From sequence record MK295204: DNA of 64,000 nucleotides; one strand, written 5' to 3'. A model generated the notes under the pieces. It did not search any database, had not been told where the DNA came from, and worked only from the letters and a program-made list of their open reading frames with translations. This stretch comes from Shigella phage vB_SdyM_006. Shown here in pieces: positions 9,085 to 44,250 of the stretch. Numbering within the stretch: position 1 is the stretch's first letter; each line of letters opens with the position of its first letter. A program made the position numbers and the translations under genes.

Positions 9085-10956
9085 TTAGTCTAATTTATCA
9101 TTTAATATTGGTTTAGCAATATGTTTTGTTCTATGGATAACTTCTTTTTGTTTACCTTCGTTAAACCCACGAGAAGCAGGATTTCCAAGATATCCACAGG
9201 TACGACGGACAACAGACATTTTCTTTACATCCATTTCACCACATTTTGGACATTTAAACCCATTTTCTGTAGGAATAAATTCTCCATGGAATTCACATGT
9301 AAAGCATTGGTCAACAGGAGTATTTGTTCCAAAATAATCTAGATTTTCTACAGCATAATCCCAGACCTGTTCTAATGCATCAAGATTATCCTTCATATTA
9401 GGGAGCTCAACATAAGAAATATGACCACCAGATGCAATACGGTGATAATCCTTTTCAAATTCAATTTTCTCAAATGGATTAACTTTACGTTCAACATCAA
9501 GATGGAAACTATTTGTGTACCAACCTTTATCTGTAATTCCTTTAACAGAACCAAATTCTGCTTTATCTAATTTGCAGAATCTGTGACATAAACTTTCTGC
9601 GGGAGTAGAATAAAGACTAAATGCATATCCAGTTTCTTCTTTCCATTTAGAAAGATAATAATTTATTTCTTTAAGAATATGTTTACCAAATTCTTGGGCT
9701 TCTTTATTATCAAATGGTTCATCATTAAAAATCAGTTTTAATGTTTCGTGTAAACCAATATATCCTAGCGAAATAGAACTTCGTCCATTTTTAAATAATG
9801 ATAATATTTCGTCATTAGGGTTCATACGAACACCAAAAGCGCCACCACAATATAAAATTGGAGCTACAGAAGCTTTTGCACCACGTAAAGAATCAATTCT
9901 AGTCATAAGAGCAGTATAACAGAGGCCAAGACGATCTCTCAATGATTGGATATATGATTCTTTAGATAAATTGTCACTACCTAATTCCAGGGCTATTCTA
10001 GGAAGATTTAATGTGACTACACCTAGATTATTGCGTCCATCTAAAATTTCTTTGCCATTTTCTTTATAGACACTTAAAAAAGATCTACACCCCATAGGAG
10101 AAACTGGGACCGAACTACCGGTTATTTCTTTATTAATTTTAGACGAAATAATATCTGGGTACATTCTTTTAGCTGAACATTCTAATGCTAATTTTTTAAT
10201 AAAATAATTAGGGTCTTCAGGTTTAAGATTAATTCCTTCTTCAATAAAGAAGACTAATTTAGGAAATATCGCAGTTACTTCATCTTTGCCTAAGCCTTTA
10301 ATTCTATTTTTAAGAATAGCTTCTTGGATAACTGTGCCGGCCCATGAAGTAGAAGTTCCAAAAGAAATAGTCACAAATGGCGTTTGTCCATTAGAGCTAA
10401 AAAGCGTATTTATTTCATATTCATACGCTTGGAAAGCGTCATAAACATCTTTTTCTGTCTTCTTCATAGCATAATCTTCCCAATCAGGAATACGCCATTC
10501 AAAAGCTTCATTAAGATGTTTTTGGTATGTAGCTTCTACGTAAGGCTCAAGAACAACATCAACATTTGCAAATGTTGTTCCACCATATTGATGAGAAGCA
10601 ACTTGGGCTGTGACTTGGGCCATAATTGCACAAGCTACACCAATTGATTTAGGTGTTTCTATTTCCGCGTTACCAAGCTTAAATCCATTTTCAAACATGC
10701 CTTTTAAATCAACTAAACAACAATTTGTAAAAGGCAGTGATACACTATAATCTAAGTCATGATAATGAATAATACCTTTGTCGTGTGCTTCTACGACATT
10801 AGAAGGCAATCTACTACGAGCCACGTACTTGGAAGCAATTCCGGCCAGTAAGTCACGTTGAGTAGGAAAGACACCATAGGGCTTGTTTGCATTTTCTGTA
10901 GAAAGTTCATTTGATTCACGATTACATACCTCATTAATTTGAGAAATTAAGTTCAT
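9085..10956 (-). CDS. nrdD: Anaerobic ribonucleoside-triphosphate reductase NrdD (glycyl radical enzyme)
   Basis: 623 aa; C-terminal glycyl radical motif RTCGYLG and Zn-ribbon CxxC pairs; continuous ORF with no intron interruption. Confidence 0.95.
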   Translation of the reverse strand: MNLISQINEVCNRESNELSTENANKPYGVFPTQRDLLAGIASKYVARSRLPSNVVEAHDKGIIHYHDLDYSVSLPFTNCCLVDLKGMFENGFKLGNAEIETPKSIGVACAIMAQVTAQVASHQYGGTTFANVDVVLEPYVEATYQKHLNEAFEWRIPDWEDYAMKKTEKDVYDAFQAYEYEINTLFSSNGQTPFVTISFGTSTSWAGTVIQEAILKNRIKGLGKDEVTAIFPKLVFFIEEGINLKPEDPNYFIKKLALECSAKRMYPDIISSKINKEITGSSVPVSPMGCRSFLSVYKENGKEILDGRNNLGVVTLNLPRIALELGSDNLSKESYIQSLRDRLGLCYTALMTRIDSLRGAKASVAPILYCGGAFGVRMNPNDEILSLFKNGRSSISLGYIGLHETLKLIFNDEPFDNKEAQEFGKHILKEINYYLSKWKEETGYAFSLYSTPAESLCHRFCKLDKAEFGSVKGITDKGWYTNSFHLDVERKVNPFEKIEFEKDYHRIASGGHISYVELPNMKDNLDALEQVWDYAVENLDYFGTNTPVDQCFTCEFHGEFIPTENGFKCPKCGEMDVKKMSVVRRTCGYLGNPASRGFNEGKQKEVIHRTKHIAKPILNDKLD

Positions 10957-11423
10957 TTTAAAGATTTCCTTAAAGCTTTTTTGTATCTTTTAGTTAACTC
11001 GGTTTTTGTATCTGTTTCTAGATATTCAAATCCGTGTAATACCATTTCTTCTATCATTTCTTCTTTAGACAACCGAGAAAACTCTTTAGATTTGTCTATT
11101 ATATACTGTGGATGGATAGGATTTTCACTGCTGTCTTTTTTTAAGTAAAATAAAAGGTTCTCCATCCAATTAATATATTCTACTTTAGATTTTAGTCCTG
11201 AACGATTAAATTTATGCTTCAACTGTCCTTCTGCTGCATTACATAAAGGGCATAATAATCCACGAACTCTTCCAGCTTCAGGACCAGATAACGCATGGTC
11301 ATGGTCCAAATGATTTTTTTGAACATCTTTATCTAATTCTAAACGACAAATACAACAAAGGCCCTTTTGGGCCTTATATAATTTTTCTTTTTCTTGTTTA
11401 AATGATTTTCCGGATAATAACAT
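10953..11423 (-). CDS. 49: Endonuclease VII (Holliday junction resolvase) gp49
   Basis: 156 aa, near-colinear with T4 endo VII (CCICRLELDKDVQKNHLDHDH..GLLCPLCNAAEGQ). Confidence 0.9.
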   Translation of the reverse strand: MLLSGKSFKQEKEKLYKAQKGLCCICRLELDKDVQKNHLDHDHALSGPEAGRVRGLLCPLCNAAEGQLKHKFNRSGLKSKVEYINWMENLLFYLKKDSSENPIHPQYIIDKSKEFSRLSKEEMIEEMVLHGFEYLETDTKTELTKRYKKALRKSLK

Positions 11424-11462
11424 TATAACCCCTATAATTTATCATATAGAGGTATTTATTAA

Positions 11463-11717
11463 TCACCAAACCAAATATTGTGGAGTCAGCTTTTTAGTAT
11501 ACTTAATAAGATTTCTTATTTGTTTTCTTGTAGGTTTAACATCAAAAACATTTAAAGCCACACGTTCATGTGGATATTCACCCACTTTAACTTTTAATGT
11601 CCATCCTAAAACTATATGTGGAGCCATTTTACAATAAGAAATTTGTACCTTTACCGGATTTTTAGCATCATTACTTGAATACTGTATAATTGATGGTGTA
11701 TTAATTTCATAGCTCAT
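11463..11717 (-). CDS. Hypothetical protein
   Basis: 84-aa ORF between nrdC and 49. Confidence 0.45.
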   Translation of the reverse strand: MSYEINTPSIIQYSSNDAKNPVKVQISYCKMAPHIVLGWTLKVKVGEYPHERVALNVFDVKPTRKQIRNLIKYTKKLTPQYLVW

Positions 11718-19940: not shown

Positions 19941-20314
19941 TATGATAACGATAACAAATACTTAGTCTTTTTACAAAGTGTCATAATTTCATCTAATGCA
20001 GATTGTCCTGCACTACAAGTCGAGTCGTAGATTTCTTCTCCTAAAGAAATTATTTTATCTAATATTTCTGTAGATGATTCTATTTTTGTTGGGAAATTTC
20101 TAGTGTAAGCACCACCACTCCCTAGATATATCTCAACAAATGTGTCTATTAATTCTGGCATATCTTCATAGAAATCTTCATATACTTTATGATGCGCATA
20201 GCTTTTTGTTTCGAAGTGATATGAGTGCATGTAAGAAGAACTTATTAAACATAATCCAATAAATTCACTATGCCTTGTAGACTTGGGTTTTACAAACGTA
20301 GAAAAATCATTCAT
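19940..20314 (-). CDS. Hypothetical protein
   Basis: 124-aa ORF. Confidence 0.5.
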   Translation of the reverse strand: MNDFSTFVKPKSTRHSEFIGLCLISSSYMHSYHFETKSYAHHKVYEDFYEDMPELIDTFVEIYLGSGGAYTRNFPTKIESSTEILDKIISLGEEIYDSTCSAGQSALDEIMTLCKKTKYLLSLS

Positions 20315-20609
20315 CGTGTACTAATTCCTTTTTAAGATTGTATACGTATTCTTGTGCTGCTGTTTTGCCATCTTCACTACATTTGTTATTTTGACAGTTT
20401 GTTTCTTCCCATTTGGTTCTAATGAAAGCATAAAACTGCTCAGATTCTTCTTTAGAAGGTTCTTTCAATTTACTGTACACAGACATGGCACCTTCAGCGT
20501 ATACATTAAAATATTTATCGTCTGATGCATACGCGCTAGAAAACCCAATGCATAGTGTTAAAACACATGCAATTATGCCAGGTGAAAAGTAATTTTTGAA
20601 CTCGGCCAT
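20307..20609 (-). CDS. Secreted/periplasmic small protein
   Basis: 100 aa; hydrophobic N-terminal segment ending AYASD (signal-peptide-like). Confidence 0.45.
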   Translation of the reverse strand: MAEFKNYFSPGIIACVLTLCIGFSSAYASDDKYFNVYAEGAMSVYSKLKEPSKEESEQFYAFIRTKWEETNCQNNKCSEDGKTAAQEYVYNLKKELVHDE

Positions 20610-22522: not shown

Positions 22523-23083
22523 TTACTCCATTGTGTTTCCTACAATAGAATTAGATTTAAGATATTCTGCAATTGTTCGAACTTCATAAGAATATGTTTG
22601 TCCAGGTTTATATTTCCAATTATAGCCGGCATTGTAGCTTGCCAAAGCTTTATTGATATCTCCTTTATGGACTTTTAACCAACTTTTAAGTTCTACATGG
22701 CTCCAATATGCAGAATTTCCTCTATCTAATAGTTCTTTAATTATATCAGAATCTGGCTTAGGAGTTCCGGCTAATTTAAGACGGTTCCTAACAGTTTTAA
22801 TATAATTTTGGAACATACCATAAGCATGGTGGTTTTTCCGGTAAACTACCAAATTTGGGTTCTCGTACCCAGAACTTTCTTTAAATGCTATAGCAGCAAA
22901 TATATACCCAAGATGCTCTTCATCTTTTTCAAAGTCTCTTGGTTCTCCGTTTTTGTTAAATTGTTGTCCAAAATGGTATGCATAATTTAGATTATCATAT
23001 TGTTCGTATGATAAATTATTAGGCAAATAAACTGCACTACAAGAAACCGAGACAAATAATAAAGCGATTAATAAATATTTCAA
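22523..23083 (-). CDS. Secreted lytic transglycosylase-like protein (SLT domain)
   Basis: 186 aa; signal peptide, then E-S ... GMFQ ... SYNAG motifs resembling the SLT catalytic signature. Confidence 0.6.
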   Translation of the reverse strand: MKYLLIALLFVSVSCSAVYLPNNLSYEQYDNLNYAYHFGQQFNKNGEPRDFEKDEEHLGYIFAAIAFKESSGYENPNLVVYRKNHHAYGMFQNYIKTVRNRLKLAGTPKPDSDIIKELLDRGNSAYWSHVELKSWLKVHKGDINKALASYNAGYNWKYKPGQTYSYEVRTIAEYLKSNSIVGNTME

Positions 23084-23499
23084 AATTTAATTACCTTTGT
23101 TGAAATTTTAGATGATAAACGTGTTGGATTAACTATAGCCATACGACATGTTAATCCATATGTTCCCTGTGTTCCTTCAGATGAAGTGAATCCAATCCAT
23201 AGTTTCCCATCTGTAATTTCTAACCTAGTAGGTCTATATTCGATATTAGGGTCTGGATTTTCTATAGGCATATCAGGCAATTTACAGTAGTCTAAAATAG
23301 ATTCCTTTGCCTGATATAATTTATTTAATAGACTAAAAATATCACTTAACGGAATTCCACGTTCTAAAGTCCTGTCAATAATATGACTTTGGAATTTAAT
23401 ATGGAACCCAGCGTTTTCTTGATTTAATTTTGAGTTAATTTCTGAGAAAGCATCAGCGAACTTCCTACGTGCTTTGGCTCGTTCTACATGAATGTTCAT
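23080..23499 (-). CDS. regB: Endoribonuclease RegB
   Basis: 139 aa; YRPTRLEITDGKLWIGFT ... CRMAIVNPTRL matches T4 RegB. Confidence 0.85.
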   Translation of the reverse strand: MNIHVERAKARRKFADAFSEINSKLNQENAGFHIKFQSHIIDRTLERGIPLSDIFSLLNKLYQAKESILDYCKLPDMPIENPDPNIEYRPTRLEITDGKLWIGFTSSEGTQGTYGLTCRMAIVNPTRLSSKISTKVIKF

Positions 23500-23897
23500 T
23501 AAATAGTCTCCAATTTTTTACCATAAAACTTATACCAATCAGGTTTTTGAGCGATTTTTTCATCTAATCTTGATTTAGATAAAGATATATCGTCTTCAGA
23601 CGGTGTATAATCATTATACCATTCTTTAGGAAAAATGAAATCAATTTTTTCAAAAGAAATGTTAAAGCCACGTTTTTTACATTCTTGGACTATCTGTTGT
23701 TGGCGAATTTCTAAAAATTTGAGTTTGTTATAAAAGAATTTGACATGACCTGTACCAAGGACGTAGTTGGCAGGAATTTTGACTGGTTTACCAAAAGCTT
23801 TTAAAGCCAAAGTAAACACACGTGGAAGTTCGCGATATTCAGCGATGAGATGTTGATCGGTAAGAAGTGCTGGGTCTAAAAGATTAATACGTGTCAT
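23499..23897 (-). CDS. denV: Endonuclease V (pyrimidine-dimer DNA glycosylase) DenV
   Basis: 132 aa; MTRINL..DQHL.AEYRELPRVF ... RLDEKIAQ.P.WYK.YGK near-colinear with T4 endo V. Confidence 0.9.
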   Translation of the reverse strand: MTRINLLDPALLTDQHLIAEYRELPRVFTLALKAFGKPVKIPANYVLGTGHVKFFYNKLKFLEIRQQQIVQECKKRGFNISFEKIDFIFPKEWYNDYTPSEDDISLSKSRLDEKIAQKPDWYKFYGKKLETI

Positions 23898-23949
23898 ATA
23901 TCCTCCATTAATTTAAGAATATACTAACACGTATTTTTATTAAAGTAAA

Positions 23950-24318
23950 CTAAATTGTATCAGTAAATGTTCTGTTAATTACATCTTCTTTCTGTTCATC
24001 AGTTAAAGAATTAAATCTAACAGCGTATCCAGAAACTCGGATAGTTAACTGTGGGTATTTTTCTGGATTTTCTCTTGCGTCTAATAACATTTCTTTGTTC
24101 AATACATTAACATTTAGATGCTGGCCACCTTCGATTCGTGGAGCAAATTCTAAAGCTAAATCTTTTTGAGTAGAATTACCAAATGAAGTCATTGGAACAA
24201 CTTCATCTTCTTTAAAATATTTTGATGCTAAAATTCTACAATTATTTGTTTCTGTATCTACTAAAAAGATTGTTCCATAAAAAGGACCAGAAACAAGTTG
24301 TCTTGCTTGAATTGACAT
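23950..24318 (-). CDS. Autonomous glycyl radical cofactor (GrcA/YfiD-like)
   Basis: 122 aa; [11 protein letters not shown] ... [31 protein letters not shown] closely matches E. coli GrcA including the RVSGY glycyl-radical motif. Confidence 0.85.
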
Positions 24319-24484
24319 TATTTTACCTCGTACATGTATGGATTAGTATCGTTAATATCTTTAACAAATCCATAGAATTTTTTATTGACATATAATGCAA
24401 TAGCATTTTTATGTTGGACCCATGCTAAATTATATAACTTATCAGAATTACCAAACGCACCTTTAGCTTCATTTAAAATCATAA

Positions 24485-24973
24485 TCAACACCCAATAAAA
24501 TATATAATAGGATAATAGCCAGTAAAAGCTATTGTACTTGTTAAAGCATCAATAAAATCAAAAGTGTTAAGTCCCATAGGTTCTTCAATAATAAAAATTG
24601 GAGAATTTAAACAACGGCCTCTAAAACGATTATGCCAACTTGGATTGGATAATGCTCTTCTGGAAGCTTTAATAAACTCTACACTTTTAATAGGTTTAAT
24701 GCCTGTCTTTTCAACATGGCCATTATATTTTAGTTTTGTGTCTAAAGCAGTATGCCCGATAATAAAAATATCTCTATGTGGATTTCTTAGTTTTTGTTCT
24801 AAAGCAAATTCTGATATTTGAGTAGATTTGTAAGTTTGACGTCCAAAATCAAGTTTGCATTGACGATATTCATAAACTACACTAAATATTGAACGTGTTA
24901 CCGTCCTCATTTTATTAGTATCATTTGCTTCACATTTATCTAAAAATTGTGTCATTAAATCATAGTAGTTCAT
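24485..24973 (-). CDS. Hypothetical protein
   Basis: 162-aa ORF; no recognised motif. Confidence 0.5.
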   Translation of the reverse strand: MNYYDLMTQFLDKCEANDTNKMRTVTRSIFSVVYEYRQCKLDFGRQTYKSTQISEFALEQKLRNPHRDIFIIGHTALDTKLKYNGHVEKTGIKPIKSVEFIKASRRALSNPSWHNRFRGRCLNSPIFIIEEPMGLNTFDFIDALTSTIAFTGYYPIIYFIGC

Positions 24974-25164
24974 TTGTTTCTCCTAATGGCCTTACTAGAT
25001 GAAATAGTAAGGCGTAGTGATAATTTAAGTTAAAATAGCCTTTTCTAATATTTCTGCTTTGGTCCAAGTAATGCCAAAACATTCCATTGGCGTTTTATCG
25101 TTAGTAAATAAATTGTTTACTAGTTGTTTGCACTCAATTTCTATGAGTTTTAAATCGGTTTCTG

Positions 25165-25347
25165 TCATAGATTTACTTCTTTAATTACAATTTTTTCGCT
25201 ATACCCAGGATAATCACATTTAATATAACTATCTTGGGATAATTTACTTTCAAACATCCAATCTTCTAATTGTTGTTCACCAGAACATGACATAAAGGCC
25301 ATAAACGATTCGGCTAAATGGTCATCAATCTCTATAGTAATTTGCAT
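25165..25347 (-). CDS. Hypothetical acidic small protein
   Basis: 60-aa ORF coupled to the M15 peptidase gene. Confidence 0.35.
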   Translation of the reverse strand: MQITIEIDDHLAESFMAFMSCSGEQQLEDWMFESKLSQDSYIKCDYPGYSEKIVIKEVNL

Positions 25348-25348
25348 A

Positions 25349-25720
25349 TTATCTCTTTAATTGGAAATGAGGACCATCTTTAAATGTTTTCCAATCACCA
25401 CCCCATTCTATAGCAATACCAAGTTCATTTGCTGCTTGTTTCATTGCTTTGGCAACGAGTTCAAATTTAGACCAATCTTGCCATGGGATAGCTTTATTAA
25501 CTAATGGTCCTAAGTCTACGGCTTCACCTGTCAAATGATAAGAATTCATAGTTTTAGAAACGCCTTTTCGGACATTTTCTTTTTGCTGTTCTACCGAACG
25601 TAGGCCTTCAATAACCATAAAATCTATCTCGGTTATTTGAATTGCTCGCTCTACAACTTTAACAAGCTCAGGTTTAACGCCTTTTAATCTATCTTTTGAT
25701 CTTTGTGATAATACGTACAT
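25349..25720 (-). CDS. M15-family L-alanyl-D-glutamate peptidase (T5-type endolysin)
   Basis: 123 aa; VKPEL.KV..RA...DF.V.EG.R ... SxHLTGEAVD ... WGGDW ... DGPHFQL aligns with the T5 endolysin / M15 zinc-peptidase signature. Confidence 0.75.
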   Translation of the reverse strand: MYVLSQRSKDRLKGVKPELVKVVERAIQITEIDFMVIEGLRSVEQQKENVRKGVSKTMNSYHLTGEAVDLGPLVNKAIPWQDWSKFELVAKAMKQAANELGIAIEWGGDWKTFKDGPHFQLKR

Positions 25721-25759
25721 AAGTTTCTCCTTTGTTTGCTTATGTACGTATTTATTAAA

Positions 25760-26209
25760 TTAGAAATCCTTATATCCTGGTGATAATTCACTAAGCATGT
25801 CTAAAAAGTGTTTAGAATCTGCAGCTAGCTCATCTTTGTTAACAGCCAATAGAATTGGTTCATTAAGTAGATTATACTTTTTAACCATTGCTTTAAAATA
25901 TGCTAAAAGATGATTATCAGTTTTTACTGATACATGGATATCGTCATCATAAGAATCAAACCCGTCATCATAAGTAGTATATCCATAAATGGTAAATACA
26001 ACATTTTTTAATTCTTCTAAAGGATTTTCTACATCAGGGAAATGCTTAGTTAATAAAGGTTTTAGACTTTCGCCATAAGAAGCAAGCACTTTATCTGTTA
26101 GTTCTAAAGTAATCTCACATTCAACCATGTCGTGTTTAATTCGTCCACCTTCTTCAAAATCACCAACTTCAGCAATTAAATCAAATAGTTCTTTATCGTT
26201 AATAATCAT
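25760..26209 (-). CDS. Hypothetical highly acidic protein
   Basis: 149 aa, roughly a quarter Asp/Glu. Confidence 0.5.
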   Translation of the reverse strand: MIINDKELFDLIAEVGDFEEGGRIKHDMVECEITLELTDKVLASYGESLKPLLTKHFPDVENPLEELKNVVFTIYGYTTYDDGFDSYDDDIHVSVKTDNHLLAYFKAMVKKYNLLNEPILLAVNKDELAADSKHFLDMLSELSPGYKDF

Positions 26210-26450
26210 TTTGTTTCCTTAAAATAGATGTACCATAATTAATATAATAAACATCATCTTTGTCTAAGCAACAGGTTCCAATAAAAATCTTATGGGTACA
26301 AGATTGCAATGAAGCTAATGCTTCTTTAAATGTTATTGCATTAACTACAGCAAGTTCATTTGTTAAGATGGTATGATTGCCTACATAAGCAAAATCATAT
26401 TCACTATTATTGATGACCCTAATAATAGTTGTTGGATGTATTTCGGTCAT
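26199..26450 (-). CDS. Hypothetical protein
   Basis: 83-aa ORF. Confidence 0.4.
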   Translation of the reverse strand: MTEIHPTTIIRVINNSEYDFAYVGNHTILTNELAVVNAITFKEALASLQSCTHKIFIGTCCLDKDDVYYINYGTSILRKQNDY

Positions 26451-26740
26451 TGAATTTTATCCTTAAACCGTTCTTGTGTCCATTCGTCAAGTCGTATAAT
26501 AAAGTCGTTATCAGTAGGGCCTATATATTTTTCTACTGCTAAAATATGAAGTTCTACTACAGAAGACGTATCATTATAAACAGCTTGGGCCAATTCTTCT
26601 AGAGACCCTTTAAATGCTCTAGAATAACATTGACCTAAAACACCTGAACTAATAAAAACTGGCTCAGTTTGTCGTTTTACAGATAAATTAGGATAAAAAT
26701 ATTTTACAAGATTAATAAACTCTTCAGTTAAGTCTGTCAT
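26447..26740 (-). CDS. Hypothetical protein
   Basis: 97-aa ORF coupled to nudE. Confidence 0.45.
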   Translation of the reverse strand: MTDLTEEFINLVKYFYPNLSVKRQTEPVFISSGVLGQCYSRAFKGSLEELAQAVYNDTSSVVELHILAVEKYIGPTDNDFIIRLDEWTQERFKDKIQ

Positions 26741-27147
26741 AAATCTAGTACCTTAATTAACAATTTAGCCTGGGATTTTGAGCAATATTTAGAGATATCA
26801 TTCAAATCAACCCATTTAAATTGGTCGTTTTCTGGGAATGTTTTACCATATTTAGTATACATACTAGTACATACACAGGTCTCAGCATCAGGAAAGTGTT
26901 CACTATCATATAAAAACAAATGCATGTTTTTGCCTTTATAATAAAAGTGTTCGCCCAAATCAATTAGTTCTTCAGGGTCTTTAACATCAAAATTTGTTTC
27001 TTCTTTAACTTCTCTTAAAGCGGCTTCTAATGCTGTTTCACCTTCATCAATATGGCCTTTAGGAATACCCCAATAAGGAGTATTTGTTGCATGGCATAAA
27101 AGGATTTGTTCGTTTTTTATAAAAATAATTCCAGATGAGATTTCCAT
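26737..27147 (-). CDS. nudE: Nudix hydrolase (NudE/e.1-like)
   Basis: 136 aa; Nudix box GHIDEGETALEAALREVKEETN. Confidence 0.85.
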   Translation of the reverse strand: MEISSGIIFIKNEQILLCHATNTPYWGIPKGHIDEGETALEAALREVKEETNFDVKDPEELIDLGEHFYYKGKNMHLFLYDSEHFPDAETCVCTSMYTKYGKTFPENDQFKWVDLNDISKYCSKSQAKLLIKVLDL

Positions 27148-27155
27148 TTTTATCC

Positions 27156-27377
27156 TTAATATTCAGCGTTATATAATCGAGACATAAGGTCTCTTAACAT
27201 TTTTGCTTCTTCATTAGATAGACTTAATGATTCGCGATAATTAATGTCACTTGGGATATCTGAATTATTTTTTAAAGTGTCAAATAAAACATCCATGCCA
27301 TGTTCTGTAAATTCTACATCCTCACAGAACAAATAATGATCACTAGATTCGCTAGTGATATGAAAAGCTATATACAT
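27156..27377 (-). CDS. Hypothetical acidic protein
   Basis: 73-aa ORF. Confidence 0.4.
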   Translation of the reverse strand: MYIAFHITSESSDHYLFCEDVEFTEHGMDVLFDTLKNNSDIPSDINYRESLSLSNEEAKMLRDLMSRLYNAEY

Positions 27378-27637
27378 TTTATATCCTCTATAATTGAAAG
27401 AGTGTAATTAAGACTATATTTAAATTGTGTGGATTCACTCCATGAGACATCTCCTCGATATCCATACATAGTATCATAAACTATAAGAACACGGTCAGCA
27501 CCATTATCTAATAAAAAGCCATAATAAATTGTAAATTGACGGTCTTTAACACTATTATAGATATAGCAGTCTTTATATCCTAAAGTGGTTTTTATTTTTA
27601 AGGTGCTTCCAATTTCAATTACTAAATTAGGGTTCAT
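27368..27637 (-). CDS. Hypothetical protein
   Basis: 89-aa ORF. Confidence 0.4.
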   Translation of the reverse strand: MNPNLVIEIGSTLKIKTTLGYKDCYIYNSVKDRQFTIYYGFLLDNGADRVLIVYDTMYGYRGDVSWSESTQFKYSLNYTLSIIEDIKCI

Positions 27638-27897
27638 TTTCTTTTGGCCTTTATATAATCGTTTATATTTTCTATGCGTTCTAATTCTTTTTCTTTTTTA
27701 ATAGACCTGTAATTAAACACATATTTTATGCCTTCATAAATGAAAATCATAATAGGTATAACTACCATTACAGAACTACATAGTAAAAATATTTGTCCTT
27801 TATTAAAATCTTCTGATAAAGTCTCGTCAATTAGTCCGGATATTAAAACTGCTATGCATGACCACATAAGCCAGATTACTAAAATTGTCTCAACCAT
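27634..27897 (-). CDS. Small membrane protein (two TM)
   Basis: 87 aa, two hydrophobic helices plus a charged tail. Confidence 0.45.
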   Translation of the reverse strand: MVETILVIWLMWSCIAVLISGLIDETLSEDFNKGQIFLLCSSVMVVIPIMIFIYEGIKYVFNYRSIKKEKELERIENINDYIKAKRK

Positions 27898-28163
27898 TAT
27901 AAATGTCCTCGCTTAGAGTTAATGTATGTCTCGACTTCTCTTTTTGTACGGTCAAAAGCTTCTTTTTGCTCATATACTTCTTGAGATTTTTTATATTGCT
28001 TATTAGCATTGATTTCTTTATAATTAGCAGCATATACGTAAATATAAAAGGCCCAGACCATAGGACAAATCATGGATGTAAATTTAGTATAAAACGGTTT
28101 GTTTACAATAGGATATAAACACCAAAAGAAGAACGTAAATATAATATAATTAGCCCAAATCAT
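27897..28163 (-). CDS. Small membrane protein (two TM)
   Basis: 88 aa, aromatic-rich hydrophobic helices. Confidence 0.45.
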   Translation of the reverse strand: MIWANYIIFTFFFWCLYPIVNKPFYTKFTSMICPMVWAFYIYVYAANYKEINANKQYKKSQEVYEQKEAFDRTKREVETYINSKRGHL

Positions 28164-28639
28164 TTTGTGTCTCCTTTAATTTCATCAAGAAAGTCAAAAT
28201 AAGCGTTAGGATAAAACAATAGAATAAATGGTGTCATTGCTAGCCCAATAGAATACAATATCATACTCAATAAATCTGTAGAATAATGTATAAAGAAAGG
28301 CCAAACTATTAAAATATACATCATTATCATAAAAATAGTGTTCATCATATAAATATTGGACAATTTATGCGGTACACTGTAATACCCGTTTTGGTATCTA
28401 TTGTTATTATTACTTAATGAAATTACAATATCACCTACCGTCTCTTTATCGAAACCTAAATTTATTGTTTCAAACATGACAAAGAGTCCTAAAACTATAC
28501 AACTTATTAAAAATAATAATGAATATGCAAACCCTGCTCCTGTGTTTGCCCACATATCAAATGAGAACAATGTATTTCCAGATAACACAAGTAAAAATAT
28601 AAAGACAACTTTGTTGATTTGAGATAATAAATAATTCAT
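28160..28639 (-). CDS. Polytopic membrane protein (about four TM)
   Basis: 159 aa with four hydrophobic segments. Confidence 0.5.
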   Translation of the reverse strand: MNYLLSQINKVVFIFLLVLSGNTLFSFDMWANTGAGFAYSLLFLISCIVLGLFVMFETINLGFDKETVGDIVISLSNNNNRYQNGYYSVPHKLSNIYMMNTIFMIMMYILIVWPFFIHYSTDLLSMILYSIGLAMTPFILLFYPNAYFDFLDEIKGDTK

Positions 28640-29127: not shown

Positions 29128-29177
29128 TATAACCTCCTAGTAAAATGGGCCTTTCGGCCCATTAATCAGTTTACTGA

Positions 29178-29774: not shown

Positions 29775-30025
29775 TTTATTTCCTTACATGTATTAGTTTC
29801 AAAATCAACAATAATATTTTTACGTTCAATGCCAAGATTAATTAATTTAGAAATACATTGACCTTGGATTTTTTGGTCTTCTAAACCTTTAGAAACACTT
29901 TTAGATAATGCACTCCATGAAAAACAAATAACTATTAAAATAACACATCCAATTAAATATTTCATGATATACTCCATTTGTTTTGATGTGTCTATAGTAT
30001 TATAGATTTTTTGTGTTGTAAACAT
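29771..30025 (-). CDS. Small secreted protein
   Basis: 84 aa; internal Met followed by signal-peptide-like MKYLIGCVILIVICFSWSALS. Confidence 0.4.
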   Translation of the reverse strand: MFTTQKIYNTIDTSKQMEYIMKYLIGCVILIVICFSWSALSKSVSKGLEDQKIQGQCISKLINLGIERKNIIVDFETNTCKEIK

Positions 30026-33127: not shown

Positions 33128-33204
33128 TGGTACACCTACGGGAATTCGAATCCCGGTTACACGCTCGAAAGGCGTGGGTCCTAGACCACTAGACGATAGG
33201 TGCA
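33128..33204 (-). tRNA. tRNA-Glu (anticodon UUC)
   Basis: Manual fold: acceptor GCACCUA/UAGGUGU, anticodon stem CACGC with loop CUUUCGA, T-loop UUCGAAU, encoded CCA. Confidence 0.7.
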
Positions 33205-33210
33205 TTAAAA

Positions 33211-33302
33211 TGGAGGAGAGTATGGGATTCGAACCCATGGAACAGCGTAACTGTCCAACGGTTTTCAAGACCGTCTCAATAATCCATCTCTGACAACTCT
33301 CC
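33211..33302 (-). tRNA. tRNA-Ser (anticodon UGA), class II
   Basis: Perfect acceptor GGAGAGU/ACUCUCC, anticodon loop CUUGAAA, long variable arm, T-loop UUCGAAU, CCA. Confidence 0.8.
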
Positions 33303-33309
33303 AATATAA

Positions 33310-33627
33310 TTAAAACAGTAGACTATAAACAGTACCTTTACAATCTATAGGTTGTGTTTTTGAATATTCTTTAAATAGATTTAAATAACCAATTTCTTCA
33401 GGTTCCCATTGTCCTTCTAAACCATAACATGAACAATGTGAGCCGTTAACTTCCCAAAATATATCATTACTATCTTTGAAGATTACAGTAGCATACCCAG
33501 AATAATCTTCATAATCGTAATATGCTAAAATGATTTCTTTGTCATTAAGTGAATCCATAGGGATTTGGAATTCATGACAGATGTCTTCTTTTGAAGTAAA
33601 CAGTTCCATAAACACATTAGTTTTCAT
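33310..33627 (-). CDS. Hypothetical protein between tRNA genes
   Basis: ORF track gives 33310-33720, but the N-terminal part overlaps tRNA-Asp; trimmed to internal Met (about 105 aa). Confidence 0.4.
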   Translation of the reverse strand: MKTNVFMELFTSKEDICHEFQIPMDSLNDKEIILAYYDYEDYSGYATVIFKDSNDIFWEVNGSHCSCYGLEGQWEPEEIGYLNLFKEYSKTQPIDCKGTVYSLLF

Positions 33628-33650
33628 ATCAATATCCTCAAAATTAATTT

Positions 33651-33726
33651 TGGCGGTCTTACCGAGAATCGAACTCGGTGCTGTTCCGTGACAGGGAACT
33701 ATGTTAACCAGGTACACCATAAGACC
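33651..33726 (-). tRNA. tRNA-Asp (anticodon GUC)
   Basis: Acceptor GGUCUUA/UAAGACC, anticodon stem GUUCC with loop CUGUCAC, T-loop UUCGAUU, CCA. Confidence 0.8.
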
Positions 33727-33756
33727 TTAAAAATGTACCCATCCGGCTTTCCAGTC

Positions 33757-33857
33757 TGGTGAAGGGTTGTCACCTCTAGTTTAAACCTGCTAGTCAAGTA
33801 ATAATTGCATATCGTCCAATTATCAAAACCGTCTAGGTTATATTACACCACTTCCTA
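33757..33857 (-). ncRNA. Possible small stable RNA in the tRNA cluster (not foldable as a canonical tRNA)
   Basis: About 100 nt between tRNA-Asp and tRNA-Gly, begins with tgg (CCA-like 3' end on minus) and contains local hairpins; T4 carries small stable RNAs in the equivalent position. Confidence 0.2.
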
Positions 33858-33919
33858 GAATACCGTCTAAGCGGACTTGATCGACGTAGATTACACCATA
33901 TACGTCTGATTGTGGAATT

Positions 33920-33993
33920 TGGAGCGATCTACGGGTATCGAACCCGTATCTTCTGGGTGGAAACCAGAAATAATAGCCATTATACTAAGATCG
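33920..33993 (-). tRNA. tRNA-Gly (anticodon UCC)
   Basis: Perfect acceptor GCGAUCU/AGAUCGC, anticodon stem UCUGG with loop UUUCCAC, T-loop UUCGAUA, CCA. Confidence 0.8.
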
Positions 33994-34615
33994 CATATTT
34001 ATTAATAAATCTTCTTGCTTGGGTATGACTTAATCCTATATGTTTAGCAAATTTATTTAAGTTACCTCTTATTGAAATATCAAATGATTTTAATATTTCT
34101 AATCTATAATTAATTTCGTCTTTTGACAATGTAGAGGCATTATTAATAGAAATTTTGTTTTTAGATATATCCGAATGTCTCTTATTTTTAAAACCAAACG
34201 AATTTTTCTTTTTGCTAAAATCATATAATCCGAGTCTAAGTCTTTTCTTAAATGTATTAACTTGTTTACTTATAGTTAATTTAGATTTTGGCAATGAATT
34301 TATATAATCCCAACCACCTTCACCACCAACTTTTAAATTATATGTATTTTTGCTTTTAACAAATTTTTCTGTAACTATTTTGGCTTCATGTATAAACATG
34401 TCATACTTATTTTTATGAAATTTTAAAATAGTTTTTTCAAAATTTTCTTTGCCATATTTTTCTATGGCTTTTTTCAAAATCTTACCTGAACCAAAATATC
34501 CATCTTCTAAATCTTTGGTTTTATGAACACCTATATAAATTTTATTATTTATTTTATTTTTAATTTTGTATGTATAATAAAACATTATAGCCTTATTTAT
34601 CTTTTGGTACTCCAT
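33980..34615 (-). CDS. GIY-YIG homing endonuclease (seg-like) inside the tRNA cluster
   Basis: 211 aa; N-terminal YTYKIKNKINNKIYIGVHKT ... GYFGSG is a GIY-YIG motif; lysine-rich C-terminal DNA-binding region. Confidence 0.75.
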   Translation of the reverse strand: MEYQKINKAIMFYYTYKIKNKINNKIYIGVHKTKDLEDGYFGSGKILKKAIEKYGKENFEKTILKFHKNKYDMFIHEAKIVTEKFVKSKNTYNLKVGGEGGWDYINSLPKSKLTISKQVNTFKKRLRLGLYDFSKKKNSFGFKNKRHSDISKNKISINNASTLSKDEINYRLEILKSFDISIRGNLNKFAKHIGLSHTQARRFINKYAILV

Positions 34616-34779
34616 TCTTTATTAGTTGCTTTATTAACAGCAGTAGAATAAGAATTTTTAATATCTTCTGTAACAGAATAGCCAGTTAACATAGTAGAAA
34701 TTAAAATAACATATCCAAGCATTAATAAAATACAAGATAAAAATCCTGCAATAATAAGAATTGTACCTAAAGTAGTCAT
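34597..34779 (-). CDS. Small membrane protein (trimmed from the 34597-34890 ORF, which overlaps a tRNA)
   Basis: Internal Met yields about 60 aa with one long hydrophobic helix. Confidence 0.35.
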   Translation of the reverse strand: MTTLGTILIIAGFLSCILLMLGYVILISTMLTGYSVTEDIKNSYSTAVNKATNKEWSTKR

Positions 34780-34798
34780 ATTGTTCTCACAAATTATT

Positions 34799-34875
34799 TG
34801 GTGACCCACCATGGAATCGAACCATGCTCCAACGCTTATGAGGCGTTCGCTTTCAACCAGTAAGCTAGAGGGCCT
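34799..34875 (-). tRNA. tRNA with anticodon CAU (Met or Ile2-type)
   Basis: Anticodon stem AACGC/GCGUU with loop CUCAUAA, T-arm CAUGG-UUCGAUU-CCAUG, CCA; acceptor has one mismatch. Confidence 0.65.
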
Positions 34876-34882
34876 TGCAATT

Positions 34883-34966
34883 GGTGGCACCGGGTAGACT
34901 CGAACTACCGAAGGCCGAAGCCTGGAGATTTACAGTCTCCTGTCATTGCCGCTAGACTACGATGCC
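34883..34966 (-). tRNA. tRNA-Tyr (anticodon GUA), class II
   Basis: Anticodon stem GGAGA/UCUCC with loop CUGUAAA, long variable arm, acceptor GGCAUCG/CGGUGCC, CCA. Confidence 0.7.
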
Positions 34967-35011
34967 TTTTCTTATCAATAACGACTAAAAATAATCGTTA
35001 TTAATCAGAAT

Positions 35012-35088
35012 TGGTACACACTACTGGATTCGAACCAGTGACCTACGGTTTAGAAGACCGTTGCTCTATCCATCTGAGCTAAGCATGC
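35012..35088 (-). tRNA. tRNA-Arg (anticodon UCU)
   Basis: Anticodon stem ACGGU/ACCGU with loop CUUCUAA, T-loop UUCGAAU, CCA; acceptor stem has three G-U pairs. Confidence 0.6.
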
Positions 35089-35089
35089 A

Positions 35090-35380
35090 TTATAAGTACT
35101 GTTTAATCAGTTCTTCGTTATTTTTAAAAAGAATAAAAATATTATCACGAACTTCAGTATCTGAGATATGCCATTTCATAGCATCAATTAAAATGTCTTT
35201 TGGGATCATATTATATAAATTATTTAGTAAAGCAATATTATTTATATCAATATCAACTTCAAATAATTCAAAAATACAACACGAAATAGAATCATAAAAA
35301 TCTTTAATGTCTATTTCATACTTAGACAAATTATTTATAAATTCTGTTTTAGCTTGTTCTGGATTATGTGCTTTAAACAT
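35090..35380 (-). CDS. Hypothetical protein
   Basis: 96-aa ORF between tRNA-Arg and tRNA-Trp. Confidence 0.45.
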   Translation of the reverse strand: MFKAHNPEQAKTEFINNLSKYEIDIKDFYDSISCCIFELFEVDIDINNIALLNNLYNMIPKDILIDAMKWHISDTEVRDNIFILFKNNEELIKQYL

Positions 35381-35402
35381 TTTTATTCCTATTATTCTAA
35401 AA

Positions 35403-35477
35403 TGGCAGGCTCTGTAGGAATCGAACCCACGTCTTCGGATTTGGAATCCGGTATTCTACCGACTGAACTAAGAACCT
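35403..35477 (-). tRNA. tRNA-Trp (anticodon CCA)
   Basis: Anticodon loop UUCCAAA, D-arm UAGUUCAGUCGGUAGAAU, T-loop UUCGAUU, CCA. Confidence 0.7.
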
Positions 35478-35478
35478 T

Positions 35479-35562
35479 TGGCGGGCAGTGTAGGATTCGA
35501 ACCTACGTCGTCAAATGACACGGATTAACAGTCCGCTGCTTAATCCACTCAGCCAACTACCC
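35479..35562 (-). tRNA. tRNA-Asn-like (anticodon GUU) with an unusually long variable arm
   Basis: Anticodon arm CGGACUGUUAAUCCG is nearly identical to E. coli tRNA-Asn, but the variable region is about 13 nt (GUCAUUUGACGAC), giving 84 nt. Confidence 0.55.
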
Positions 35563-40664: not shown

Positions 40665-41483
40665 TTATCTTTTCCAAACTTTAGAAGCTGCAAATCTTGA
40701 ACCTTGAGACATAAATTGCTGAGTAGGCATAAAAATAATATTAGACCAATCTTGTGGTTTAACTTCTATTATAGGGCCTTTAATATGTCCAGGTAAATAA
40801 GCTTTTATCATCTGATCAGAACCATGCATTCCTCTAACACTACTCCAATTAATTTTTAATTTAGTTTTAGAAGAAATGTTACTTGTAGAAGAAAATCTTT
40901 TTAATAGTTCTTCTAAAAATGCTTGTCTGGCTTTAGGTGGTATATAATGAAGATTTAATCCATATAATAATTGATTTCCGTTTCCAGCAGTTTTAGCACC
41001 TAAGAAAATGATCAATGGAAACTTATCCCAATACGGGAGAGTATCTTTATTTTTGGCATCATAAACATAAGTATAAATTTTACCGATTTCTGGTACTTTA
41101 GTTGTTTTTGTTCTTACACCAGTTTTTATAGTTTCTTTAAACCATTTTATAGATTTATTATTAACAGCTGCGCCTTCATTTCTTATTTTTTTCTTTAAAG
41201 TACTTCTAAAGTCATTTACAATTGCAAGTTCACGTTCTCTACGTGATAATTTATGTTTAGATTTACCTTTAATAGCTTCGACTTCTAATGCTTCTTTTAT
41301 TTTATCAGAATACCGACTCATTGCTGATGTGAATGTGCTATATTTTATTCCTTTATATTCAGCAAACTTTTTAGAAGACACAGTTCTTCTAACTTTAGCA
41401 AATTCAACACCTAATTTAATCCAATCTTGTGCTGTTTTAGGTAAAGACATTTCTTCTTCAATTTCAAATATCATCCTTTCCAC
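40665..41483 (-). CDS. 2: DNA end-protector protein gp2
   Basis: 272 aa (T4 gp2 is 274 aa); synteny. Confidence 0.7.
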   Translation of the reverse strand: MERMIFEIEEEMSLPKTAQDWIKLGVEFAKVRRTVSSKKFAEYKGIKYSTFTSAMSRYSDKIKEALEVEAIKGKSKHKLSRRERELAIVNDFRSTLKKKIRNEGAAVNNKSIKWFKETIKTGVRTKTTKVPEIGKIYTYVYDAKNKDTLPYWDKFPLIIFLGAKTAGNGNQLLYGLNLHYIPPKARQAFLEELLKRFSSTSNISSKTKLKINWSSVRGMHGSDQMIKAYLPGHIKGPIIEVKPQDWSNIIFMPTQQFMSQGSRFAASKVWKR

Positions 41484-41920
41484 CCCATGGTCTTTAAAGA
41501 CCTTTCTGTCACTATTTTAAATTTGATATTCATTTTATCCGCTAATTTTTGGGCCGCTTTCCATTTATCACTATTAACCTGGAATGTGTATATTTCTTCC
41601 ATAAATCTTTTTTTAGCCTTAACAGTAATATTAGCAGGTGGTCTAGGTTGTTGGGTTTCTTTAAATGGTTTTACTTCAAATAGAAATTCTTGTCCACTTT
41701 TGAATTTAGCCCAAAAATCCATAAAATATCTTCTTTTTTTGCCATCTGCATTACTAAAGTATGGAATTACGACTTCTTCAGAATTCCACCTAATACAATC
41801 TGGGTTATTATCAAGCCACTTCATAAAAAAGTGTTCCCAAGATGACCTATATGTAATTTTTCTCCAATCACCTTTATATTTGTCTTTATGAACTGGCAAG
41901 TATTTTCCTTTATAAGCCAT
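41471..41920 (-). CDS. 4: Head completion protein gp4
   Basis: 149 aa (T4 gp4 is 150 aa); divergent from gene 53 as in T4. Confidence 0.7.
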   Translation of the reverse strand: MAYKGKYLPVHKDKYKGDWRKITYRSSWEHFFMKWLDNNPDCIRWNSEEVVIPYFSNADGKKRRYFMDFWAKFKSGQEFLFEVKPFKETQQPRPPANITVKAKKRFMEEIYTFQVNSDKWKAAQKLADKMNIKFKIVTERSLKTMGWKG

Positions 41921-41933: not shown

Positions 41934-41941
41934 TATAAATA
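41934..41941 (+). promoter_or_regulatory. Late promoter TATAAATA for gene 53
   Basis: Exact TATAAATA about 30 nt upstream of the gene 53 ATG. Confidence 0.6.
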
Positions 41942-41971: not shown

Positions 41972-42523
41972 ATGATTTTTTCCTTTTTTGATCCTGTAGA
42001 ATATAGAGGAAAACTAACAACCAATATATTCAGAAACTATAAAGTTTATATAAAAAGAGTTTTATCTAATTATAAACTTAAAACATACTATATTTCTGGC
42101 TCACCGAGACCAGAAGAACTTGCTAATGCATTATATGGTAATCCACAACTATATTGGGTCTTATTAATGATCAATGACAATTATGACCCATTCCATGGCT
42201 GGATTAAAGGACAAGAAGCCTCATATCAGAGCGCTATACAACGCTATGAGAACGCAGGAGGACAACAAGTACTATACCATATAGATAATAATGGTGAACG
42301 TTATTATAACCTAGTAGAAGATCCTGATAACCCAGGCCTTTGGTACGATAAAGGCGATAAAGATATGGAACACTTGCAATATAATGGGCCTTTAGCTGCT
42401 ATAGATATTCTTGAAGATTCAATTCTTAAAAACGAAGAACGACGAGAAATAAAAATAATTGACCCTAAAGAAATTCAATCTTTTATTAGTGCAATTATTA
42501 GAGAGATGGAAAAAACACTATGA
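41972..42523 (+). CDS. 53: Baseplate wedge protein gp53
   Basis: 183 aa; MIFSFFDPVEY ... YYISGSPRPEELANALYGNPQLYWVLLMINDNYDP near-colinear with T4 gp53. Confidence 0.85.
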   Translation: MIFSFFDPVEYRGKLTTNIFRNYKVYIKRVLSNYKLKTYYISGSPRPEELANALYGNPQLYWVLLMINDNYDPFHGWIKGQEASYQSAIQRYENAGGQQVLYHIDNNGERYYNLVEDPDNPGLWYDKGDKDMEHLQYNGPLAAIDILEDSILKNEERREIKIIDPKEIQSFISAIIREMEKTL

Positions 42524-44250
42524 ATATCCAAAATTCTTATATCCAACCATTTTTTGGTGTTGTTGAAGATCGAATGGACCCTAAGAAATTAGGACGTGTC
42601 AGAGTTAGAATATATGGAGATCACCCTTTTTCTAAAACTAAAGGTGACGTGGCTGGTTTAGAAACTGAAGATTTATTATGGTTCCAAGTATTATTACCAG
42701 CAACATCTGCTACTGAATCCGGTGTTGGTAATTCTCCAACTGGTATATTAGAAGGCTCTTCAGTTTTTGGCCTATATTTAGACAAATATAAAACTTCAGG
42801 AATTGTTTTAGGGACTTGGGCTGGGATAAGAACAGAAATGCCTAACTACACAGAAGGTTTTTCCGACCCAAATCAACAGTACCCTACTAAACTTGGGAAT
42901 GATTTAAATGATTTATCTCTAGGTGGAAGAATAGGTAAAGAATCTATTGTTAACGTAATTCAAAATGATAATAGAGAAACTGCACCGAACCCATCAAATA
43001 TACCTGCAGGCGAAGAACCTGAAAATAACAGCCCAGAATTGACAATAGAAAAAATGTTACAACGTGACGAAGGCTTACGTTTACGTTGGTACCCAGATAA
43101 TGGATATGCATCTATTGGTATAGGACATTTAATTAAAGCCCAGAAAACATCAGACCCAGATTTAATTAATAAATGGATTTCAGAACTTGTCGGAAGAAAA
43201 GTAACAAACGGAACCATAACAATGGATGAATGTATGTCCATTTTTAAATCTGATATTAAAAAAGTTAAAGATGGAATAGTTAAGCACCCTACTATTGGTC
43301 CGATCTACAAAAAATGTAATGCTTCTAGGAAAATGGCTTTAGAGAACATGGCATATCAAATGGGACTAGGTGGATTAGCTAAATTTAAAAAAACTTTGAG
43401 ATACATGGAAGAAGAAAAATGGGAAGACGCTTATATAAATCTCCAACAATCACTTTGGTTTAGACAAACTAAAGGACGAGCATCAAGGGTTTCTTTGATT
43501 ATTCGTAATGGTAATTTAGAATCATACGGCGAAAAGACCCCTAGTGCCGCTAGGGCGTTCTCTTTACAAAAGAATATAAACATAGAACCTGAAGATCCTT
43601 TTGTCCCTAGCGACTCTAGGGTTATGTTTGAAGAACCTAAAACAGATTATAATAGCCAATACCCATATAATAAAACCTTTGGAACAGAATCAGGTATGAT
43701 TCAAGAATTTGACGATACACCTGGTGCCGAACGTTATAGACTAACACATACTTCAGGAACATACCAAGAAATTTCTCCAGATGGAAGAAATGTACAAAAA
43801 ATAATTGGGGACAATTATAAAATAGTCCAACAAGACGACCATATATTAGTCCAAGGCGATGTTAAACTTGTTATTGGCGGTAATTCTAATGTTTACATTA
43901 TGGGGTCATTAAACCAAACAATTGATGGAAGTATAAATCAAACTGTTAGAGGAAATGTTGTTCAACATGTAGAAGGTAATGTTAAAGCGACAATAGACCA
44001 AACGGCCGATATTCTTGTTAAAGAAGAAGCTATGATAACAGTTGAAAAAGATTTAACAGTTAATGCAAATCAAAATGCGGAAATTAATGTTAAAGAAAAA
44101 GCCACGGTTAATGCAGAAAATATTTCTGTTAACGCAGAGAAGACTATGAAGTTTAAAGCTGAAGATGTTGATTTTAGTGCAGTTAAAACATTTTCTGTTG
44201 ATTCTGGTGTTCTTACTAAAATTACAGGTGCTAATGTACAGGTGGGATAA
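42520..44250 (+). CDS. 5: Baseplate hub / cell-puncturing device with lysozyme domain gp5
   Basis: 576 aa; N-terminal OB domain (FFGVVEDRMDPKKLGRVRVRIYG), lysozyme domain (LQRDEGLRLRWYPDNGYASIGIGHLI) and C-terminal beta-helix repeats. Confidence 0.9.
   Translation: MNIQNSYIQPFFGVVEDRMDPKKLGRVRVRIYGDHPFSKTKGDVAGLETEDLLWFQVLLPATSATESGVGNSPTGILEGSSVFGLYLDKYKTSGIVLGTWAGIRTEMPNYTEGFSDPNQQYPTKLGNDLNDLSLGGRIGKESIVNVIQNDNRETAPNPSNIPAGEEPENNSPELTIEKMLQRDEGLRLRWYPDNGYASIGIGHLIKAQKTSDPDLINKWISELVGRKVTNGTITMDECMSIFKSDIKKVKDGIVKHPTIGPIYKKCNASRKMALENMAYQMGLGGLAKFKKTLRYMEEEKWEDAYINLQQSLWFRQTKGRASRVSLIIRNGNLESYGEKTPSAARAFSLQKNINIEPEDPFVPSDSRVMFEEPKTDYNSQYPYNKTFGTESGMIQEFDDTPGAERYRLTHTSGTYQEISPDGRNVQKIIGDNYKIVQQDDHILVQGDVKLVIGGNSNVYIMGSLNQTIDGSINQTVRGNVVQHVEGNVKATIDQTADILVKEEAMITVEKDLTVNANQNAEINVKEKATVNAENISVNAEKTMKFKAEDVDFSAVKTFSVDSGVLTKITGANVQVG

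Follow-up and report, generated by a model that had tools for sequence, protein, structure and literature searches.

The window, a stretch of 64,000 nucleotides of Shigella phage vB_SdyM_006 (MK295204), carries a gene in the interval where phage T4 encodes lysozyme e whose product is, with a probability of roughly 0.85 judged from sequence comparison, the phage endolysin, an M15C peptidase of the EndoRB49/EndoRB43 type. The gene begins within a predicted RNA hairpin whose 5' arm overlaps a late-promoter-like box, and modelling of this leader makes a timing gate of the T4 gene e type the somewhat favored reading. The identification of the enzyme is mainly a correct re-identification: the endolysin of Proteus T4-like phages, as of RB43 and RB49, is an M15C peptidase and not lysozyme e. 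The architecture of the leader is a modest, testable addition, suggesting that regulatory logic can outlive the gene that it regulates. The features of the locus are collected in Table 1.

Table 1. Position of the M15 gene, its leader elements and associated genes in the window
Feature	Position	Strand	Details
M15C zinc peptidase CDS (putative endolysin)	25349..25720, including stop	-	123 aa; ATG start, TAA stop
Predicted active site of the M15 protein			predicted Zn ligands H62, D69, H118; predicted catalytic D115; conserved Trp W110
Late-promoter-like box	25749..25756	-	AATAAATA; T4 consensus TATAAATA at -13..-6
Predicted start-site RNA hairpin	25710..25752	-	14 perfect pairs; 15-nt loop 25738-25724
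Hairpin 5' arm	25752-25739	-	AAUACGUACAUAAG
Hairpin 3' arm	25723-25710	-	CUUAUGUACGUAUU
Shine-Dalgarno (SD) sequence	25727..25732	-	AAGGAG, exposed in the hairpin loop
nudE homologue (NUDIX)	26737..27147	-	upstream synteny anchor
denV homologue (endonuclease V)	23499..23897	-	downstream synteny anchor
Lysozyme domain in gp5 (ORF 42520..44250)	43039..43527	+	41% identical to T4 e, E 1e-35
rI homologue (lysis-inhibition antiholin)	20307..20609	-	sole other T4 lysis-system gene in the window

The M15 protein

The preliminary description had proposed a 123-residue protein that shares four motifs with the T5 endopeptidase. The reading frame from ATG to TAA was confirmed and contains all four motifs, VKPELVKV at residues 15-22, SYHLTGEAVD at 60-69, WGGDW at 106-110 and DGPHFQL at 115-121. 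Membership in the M15 family was borne out by matches far beyond chance in Pfam, PHROG and the PDB. The protein scored 55.3 bits against Pfam PF13539 (Peptidase_M15_4; cut-off 25, E 1e-14) and matched PHROG 465, 'endolysin', with an E value of 1.4e-66. Among solved structures, the L-alanyl-D-glutamate endopeptidases 23ri_A and 8q2g_A matched at E~1e-37, and further matches were obtained to Serratia ChiX (1.9e-33) and to the T5 enzyme 2mxz (1.4e-24). The entry 23ri_A is the endolysin of GEC-3S, an RB49-like phage, identical across 120 aligned residues, and 8q2g_A has nearly the same sequence.

The five active-site residues listed in Table 1 were invariant in an alignment with seven relatives from T4-like, Vequintavirinae and T5-like phages, and they align with those of the solved structures. 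Catalysis requires the corresponding tryptophan, W109 in the RB49 enzyme and W114 in the T5 enzyme (PMC10487532). The 11-residue Ca2+-binding loop of T5 is absent from the M15 protein, where an 11-column gap against the T5-like sequence lies between the Trp and the catalytic Asp. Identity amounts to 39% with the T5-like enzyme, to 54-60% with RB49-like and Vequintavirinae enzymes and to 50-55% with EndoRB49 and EndoRB43. Because the loop is missing, the protein was filed with the RB49/RB43/ChiX subtype, and the RB49 and RB43 enzymes are without Ca2+ regulation (PMC10487532). The earlier label "T5-type" was therefore appropriate to the family and the motifs but not to the subtype; by its sequence, the protein is T5-like at the family level and of the predicted Ca2+-independent EndoRB49/EndoRB43/ChiX subtype. 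EndoRB49, EndoRB43 and EndoT5 were all found by NMR to cleave L-Ala-D-Glu linkages (PMC8140593), and from homology to these assayed enzymes we infer the same specificity for the M15 protein.

The pI of the M15 protein is predicted to be 9.4, and its mass is 14 kDa. A signal peptide, a SAR domain and a transmembrane segment were looked for and none was found in it (maximum Kyte-Doolittle value 1.16 over 19 residues); its N-terminus, MYVLSQRSKDRLKG, is polar. A single-sequence AlphaFold model was poor (pLDDT 58) and was set aside. The TAA codon lies one base from the ATG of a 60-residue acidic reading frame (25165..25347, PHROG 13846; site 25345..25351, minus strand), a spacing that suggests translational coupling. 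In PM2 and Pm5461, an annotated 152-residue reading frame takes the place of the 60-residue one downstream of the endolysin gene.

The gene e interval and the lysis partners

The 5 kb around the M15 gene share 97.6% identity with Proteus phage phiP4-3 (Bragavirus, Straboviridae), in which the absence of e and the lysis partners were assessed genome-wide in place of the window's own full genome. Along the direction of transcription, the T4 order is nudE-e-ipIII-ipII-denV-vs.8...vs.3-regB-vs.1, and that of the window is nudE, three small ORFs, the M15 gene, four small ORFs, a vs.6/GrcA-like gene, denV, regB and the vs.1 homologue. Since the nudE...denV order is common to T4 and the window, the interval is the same, and the earlier placement of the gene between denV and nudE holds. 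The M15 gene occupies the T4 gene e interval, although nudE is not its immediate neighbor, the three small ORFs lying between them. The vs.6 homologue (23950..24318, minus strand), which encodes a GrcA-like glycyl-radical protein (Pfam Gly_radical, 9e-17), separates the endolysin block from denV, at the place of ipII and ipIII in T4. Nine tRNA genes are clustered at 33131..35562 (minus strand), upstream of e.x-like ORFs, as in T4.

No e-like reading frame is present, as had been claimed. When the T4 e protein was compared by tblastn with the window and with the entire phiP4-3 genome, where a canonical e elsewhere was sought, the gp5 domain was the sole match and no free e was found. The accompanying claim that the only lysozyme domain of the window is the one in gp5 was correct for the T4-lysozyme family; however, the window has a second domain related to the lysozyme fold, an SLT lytic-transglycosylase domain (Pfam 5e-5) in the vs.1 homologue (22523..23083, minus strand), which has a TTG start and a signal peptide. 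In T4, vs.1 is a conserved gene (PMC1524935) that is present alongside e, and the endolysin is therefore a different protein.

Both the window and the complete phiP4-3 genome contain one copy of the M15 gene, and its product is the only free, signal-less wall hydrolase encoded by phiP4-3. The annotation of that phage places the holin at gp014, the spanins at gp043/044, rI at gp234 and rIII at gp058; judged from this phage, the window includes none of holin t, the spanins and rIII.

Predicted late box and hairpin in the leader of the M15 gene

The box AATAAATA starts 36 nt upstream of the M15 ATG and shares its final four bases with the beginning of the hairpin's 5' arm. T4 late promoters carry TATAAATA at -13..-6 (PMC1524935), and the window box is the A(-13) variant rather than the perfect consensus. 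An A at -13 is the commonest variant of T4 late promoters, found at 9 of 50 sites (PMC2988020), and the A(-13) late box is common in other T4-like phages (PMC1524935). The late transcript is predicted to start at the A at 25743.

The M15 AUG (25720-25718) lies inside the 3' arm of the hairpin; in the Bragavirus hairpin the AUG alone is sequestered, the SD staying exposed. The predicted free energy of the hairpin was -15.8 kcal/mol (z -6.8), and none of 200 dinucleotide shuffles was as stable. The predicted probability that the AUG is paired was 1.00, ranking first among the 113 ORFs of the window, while the minimum free energy ranked third. Opening of the region from -18 to +12 in the read-through RNA was calculated to cost 16.6 kcal/mol, the second highest of the 113 values (median 6.8, sd 3.1). 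The predicted late RNA keeps 5 of the 14 bases of the 5' arm and would open at a cost of 3.1 kcal/mol. The sequence GGAG is the cleavage motif of RegB (PMC3014915); the SD in the loop, AAGGAG, contains it and regB lies 2 kb downstream, and it may be speculated that the exposed GGAG is an additional RegB target.

Other signals were sought around the gene. A scan of 23000-30000 detected no terminator-like site on the minus strand between 27339 and the M15 gene. A sigma-70 promoter scan of the same region gave 32 hits vs. 41.7 in shuffles and was hence uninformative. The Rfam scan returned tRNAs only, with no known RNA family at the M15 leader. In the Pm5461 record, the annotated promoters consist of early-type -10 boxes and thus give no help regarding late ones. 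The motif WATAAATA occurs 26 times in the window against 40.9 expected, and 99 of 100 shuffles had at least as many occurrences. This suggests selection against stray late-promoter boxes, and the depletion makes the correctly placed boxes more meaningful.

Leaders of related genes and of other genes in the window

M15 genes upstream of regB and/or denV were found in the Bragavirus phages phiP4-3, PM2, Pm5461 and SJ_PmiM, in Providencia phage PSTCR6 and in Morganella phage Mm5; the same region also holds M15 genes in Gualtarvirus PSTRCR_127, Krischvirus GEC-3S, RB43 and Slopekvirus Miro. In each of the 11 T4-like M15 genes examined, a sample drawn, not exhaustively, from Bragavirus, PSTCR6, Mm5, Gualtarvirus, Krischvirus, Pseudotevenvirus and Slopekvirus, the predicted start-site hairpin has its 5' arm overlapped by a late box. 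The box starts at -32 to -36, or in the RB43 group at -47 to -49. For all of these genes, the predicted opening cost was 12-17 kcal/mol in the read-through RNA and 3-6 kcal/mol in the late RNA.

The stem sequences of the 11 genes are lineage-specific, and the lineage-specific stems include the first codons of the M15 genes themselves. The Bragavirus phages have the box AATAAATA and the hairpin of the window, with a G.U pair in PM2 and a C.A mismatch in SJ_PmiM at the same pair, the mismatch weakening the stem to a dG of -10. Providencia phage PSTCR6 has the perfect box TATAAATA in the register of the window, and Mm5 has the box CATAAATA with an unrelated stem that buries the SD. In PSTRCR_127 the box is AATAAATA and the stem is formed from the gene's own first codons, and in GEC-3S the box is TCTAAATA and the stem buries both SD and AUG. 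RB43 and Miro, with the boxes CGTAAATA and CATAAATA, have a terminator-like hairpin together with an outer stem that pairs the SD. The hairpin z-scores were modest in two lineages, about -1.9 in the RB49-like GEC-3S and about -2.4 in PSTRCR_127. A strict compensatory double substitution was not seen within any of the lineages, the Bragavirus stem included.

Gene e of T4 is reportedly subject to translational control, described by McPheeters et al. in 1986. By the same computation as above, its read-through RNA required 18.2 kcal/mol for opening and its two late RNAs 2.6-4.9 kcal/mol. The mechanism of a late promoter within a hairpin is experimentally established for T4 e, soc, 49 and I-TevI (PMC3014915). 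In the window, the gp49 (endonuclease VII) homologue (10953..11423; leader 11394..11493, minus strand) has AATAAATA at 11460-11453 and, after it, a 9-bp hairpin in which the SD is paired. This layout mirrors the control of T4 gene 49 and serves as an internal positive control; it also supports AATAAATA as a working late box here.

About 104-114 distinct non-T4-like loci, with M15 enzymes 52-67% identical, served as controls. Raw opening energies are not comparable across genomes, since among the 114 distinct start regions of the controls, whose phages are GC-richer, 31 reach at least 11.8 kcal/mol, and within-window ranks and shuffle z-scores were therefore used. The shuffle z-scores of the control loci were centered on 0 (mean 0.11, sd 1.58). 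At most 2 chance matches to a late box were found at the ~110 control loci, neither of them with a hairpin. One control clade of small non-T4 phages or prophages (L109-L125 and L134, on IMG/VR contigs of 15-71 kb) carries a hairpin that is GC-rich and terminator-like, with a U-run ending directly at the M15 ATG (AACCCTCA....TGAGGGTTTTTTTATG), with z-scores of -2.8 to -5.2; on the model, this hairpin is probably a different gating of the same endolysin gene. Strong hairpins thus occur outside the T4-like phages as well, and what sets these phages apart is the combination of box and hairpin. Two IMG/VR scans yielded almost exclusively small contigs of non-T4 type, useful as controls, and one further T4-like locus.

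Structured start sites were also observed at other genes. The denV leader (23868..23967, minus strand) places its start site in a hairpin of ~20 bp and -22 kcal/mol, and strong denV hairpins that sequester the SD or AUG, with differing sequences, are also found in T4 (L002, ~6073-6172), PM2 (L003), PSTRCR_127 (L008) and PSTCR6 (L005). In the window, T4 and PM2, an upstream GTTTAC element resembling a -35 sequence is accompanied by a -10-like box inside the 5' arm; as modelled, this would be the same design of a promoter inside an inhibitory hairpin, with an early-type promoter. The start region of the rI homologue is unusually structured, requiring 14.3 kcal/mol to open. The gene at 41471..41920 (minus strand), which lies beside back-to-back TATAAATA boxes at 41934/41959, requires 17.1 kcal/mol and ranks first of 113.

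Proposed function and timing

The M15 protein would be a single-domain, cytoplasmic, Zn2+-dependent endolysin that is made late and builds up in the cytoplasm. Since it has no secretion signal, it would accumulate there and gain access to the wall only once a T-type holin opens the inner membrane, an event presumably timed by the RI/RIII lysis-inhibition system. The enzyme would then cut the stem peptide at L-Ala-D-Glu, and the spanins would break the outer membrane afterwards and complete lysis. The T4 lysis system would be otherwise unchanged, the wall-cutting enzyme alone being non-orthologous. Early transcripts reading through from upstream would fold the 14-bp hairpin and, with the AUG buried, remain untranslated. 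RNA polymerase carrying gp55 would start at AATAAATA, at ~25743 inside the 5' arm, and the resulting RNA, lacking the hairpin, would be translated. The role in lysis, the activity of the promoter and the occlusion of translation are what we infer from these arrangements.

An accessory peptidase of wall remodelling or secretion, similar to ChiX, would leave lysis to another hydrolase such as the vs.1 homologue or gp5. ChiX is indeed a close structural relative of the M15 protein by the E value given above, the signal-peptide SLT protein is encoded 2.3 kb downstream of the M15 gene, and gp5 has its lysozyme domain. However, T4 possesses both vs.1 and gp5, yet its lysis requires e. Furthermore, lytic activity has been demonstrated for the phage endolysins that are the closest homologues of the M15 protein (PMC8140593, PMC10487532), phiP4-3 encodes no other free wall hydrolase devoid of a signal, and the late box and predicted gate fit a lysis gene; an accessory role is accordingly very improbable. 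A VanY-like D-Ala-D-Ala carboxypeptidase that trims stem peptides is suggested by the Pfam descriptions of PF13539 and PF02557, which name a carboxypeptidase, and by a weak VanY match (E 0.005). The score of that match, 17 bits, is below the gathering score of 25, and the bond cleaved by the RB49-type relatives has been determined as L-Ala-D-Glu (PMC8140593), leaving this activity scarcely credible.

The inverted repeat at the start of the M15 gene might have nothing to do with gating and be a chance AT-rich palindrome, an element of RNA stability or processing, or a recombination joint left by gene exchange. The exposed SD and the lack of a compensatory double change within the Bragavirus stem are in keeping with such an origin, as are the hairpins that precede endolysin genes in some non-T4 phages. 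Against it stand the failure of all 200 shuffles to match the stability of the hairpin and the finding of different stems at the same place, each under a late box, in every T4-like lineage examined. Moreover, the leader copies the proven design of T4 e, 49, soc and I-TevI (PMC3014915), and a repeat without a gating function is rather unlikely.

For the preferred reading, a gate on the M15 gene, the wider question is whether the e "timer" belongs to the slot rather than to the enzyme. The chances appear evenly balanced that it is under selection as a property of the endolysin slot, kept or rebuilt on the non-orthologous M15 genes of at least three apparently separate T4-like enzyme lineages, namely those of the Proteus/Providencia/Morganella phages, the RB49/Gualtarvirus group and the RB43/Slopekvirus group. 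If this is true, early synthesis even of a signal-less endolysin would be strongly counter-selected.

Relatives and age of the exchange

The phiP4-3 homologue, KNT81_gp248 (YP_010093702.1), is 99.2% identical to the M15 protein and annotated "endolysin", and a published alignment of M15_C L,D-peptidases includes YP_010093702.1 and the Pm5461 homologue (PMC10487532). The M15 endolysin of the window is consequently already known and not a discovery. A review of 2010 listed RB43, RB49 and others with "no apparent gene e", and replacement endolysin genes were not examined there (PMC3014915). Given this list and the characterization of EndoRB49 and EndoRB43, the replacement of e by an M15 gene in T4-like phages is established, and it is documented for RB43 and RB49. 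In the literature searched, a leader of box plus hairpin was not described for the phages lacking e, which were explicitly left out. In a paper of 2026, enzymes of the M15A and CHAP types from other Proteus phages were called the first characterized (PMC13461873).

That the lysis enzyme had been swapped as a module, as the preliminary description held, agrees with an M15 gene in the e interval and no free e, but the exchange is old and common to several T4-like genera. The M15 gene has a GC content of 0.36 and a GC3 of 0.22, the same as its neighbors; a recent horizontal acquisition was rejected because of the equal GC3. In a rough neighbor-joining tree without support values, the T4-like M15 enzymes formed three groups, and those of the Proteus, Providencia and Morganella phages nested among enzymes of small non-T4 phages. 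The closest non-T4 relative in GenBank is that of Proteus siphovirus Pm34 (65%). Several exchanges of the endolysin gene are plausible from these sequence relationships.

The O-acetylated peptidoglycan of Proteus resists lysozymes (PMC6783866). Bragavirus endolysins would be candidates for use against Proteus, where an enzyme that cuts a peptide bond could be useful. The argument for adaptation to Proteus is weakened because an enzyme of this type is also found in RB43 and RB49, which are phages of E. coli, and because gp5 retains its lysozyme domain.

Comparison with known systems

EndoRB49 and EndoRB43 have the same single-domain M15C build as the M15 protein, with 120-130 residues, the Zn triad, the catalytic Asp and the Trp and without the Ca2+ loop, and they likewise come from T4-like phages devoid of e, where their genes lie in the same general region upstream of regB; they differ in that the window enzyme belongs to another lineage of the rough neighbor-joining tree. 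EndoT5 (PDB 2mxz, 8p3a) shares the family, the fold and the motifs SxHxxGxAxD and DxxH, but has, between the Trp and the catalytic Asp, an 11-residue regulatory loop that binds Ca2+ (PMC10487532). The endolysin gene of T5-like phages comes directly after the holin gene and has neither late box nor hairpin. ChiX of Serratia marcescens (PDB 5opz) has the same motifs and, like the M15 protein, no Ca2+ loop. It is a bacterial protein, paired with a holin-like protein in chitinase secretion (ChiWXYZ) and not in phage lysis.

Lysozyme e of T4 has the role predicted for the M15 protein, the same nudE...denV interval, the same partners (holin T, RI, RIII and the spanins) and apparently the same leader design. 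The two enzymes are not homologous, e being a muramidase that acts on the glycan strand and the M15 protein a predicted metallopeptidase of the stem peptide. In the early read-through RNA of T4, a hairpin covers the initiation region of e, as predicted for the M15 gene, and because the late box of T4 e lies in the 5' arm, the late RNA is made without that arm. The T4 leader differs in having two boxes and the SD in the stem, whereas the M15 leader has one box and, in the predicted stem, the AUG.
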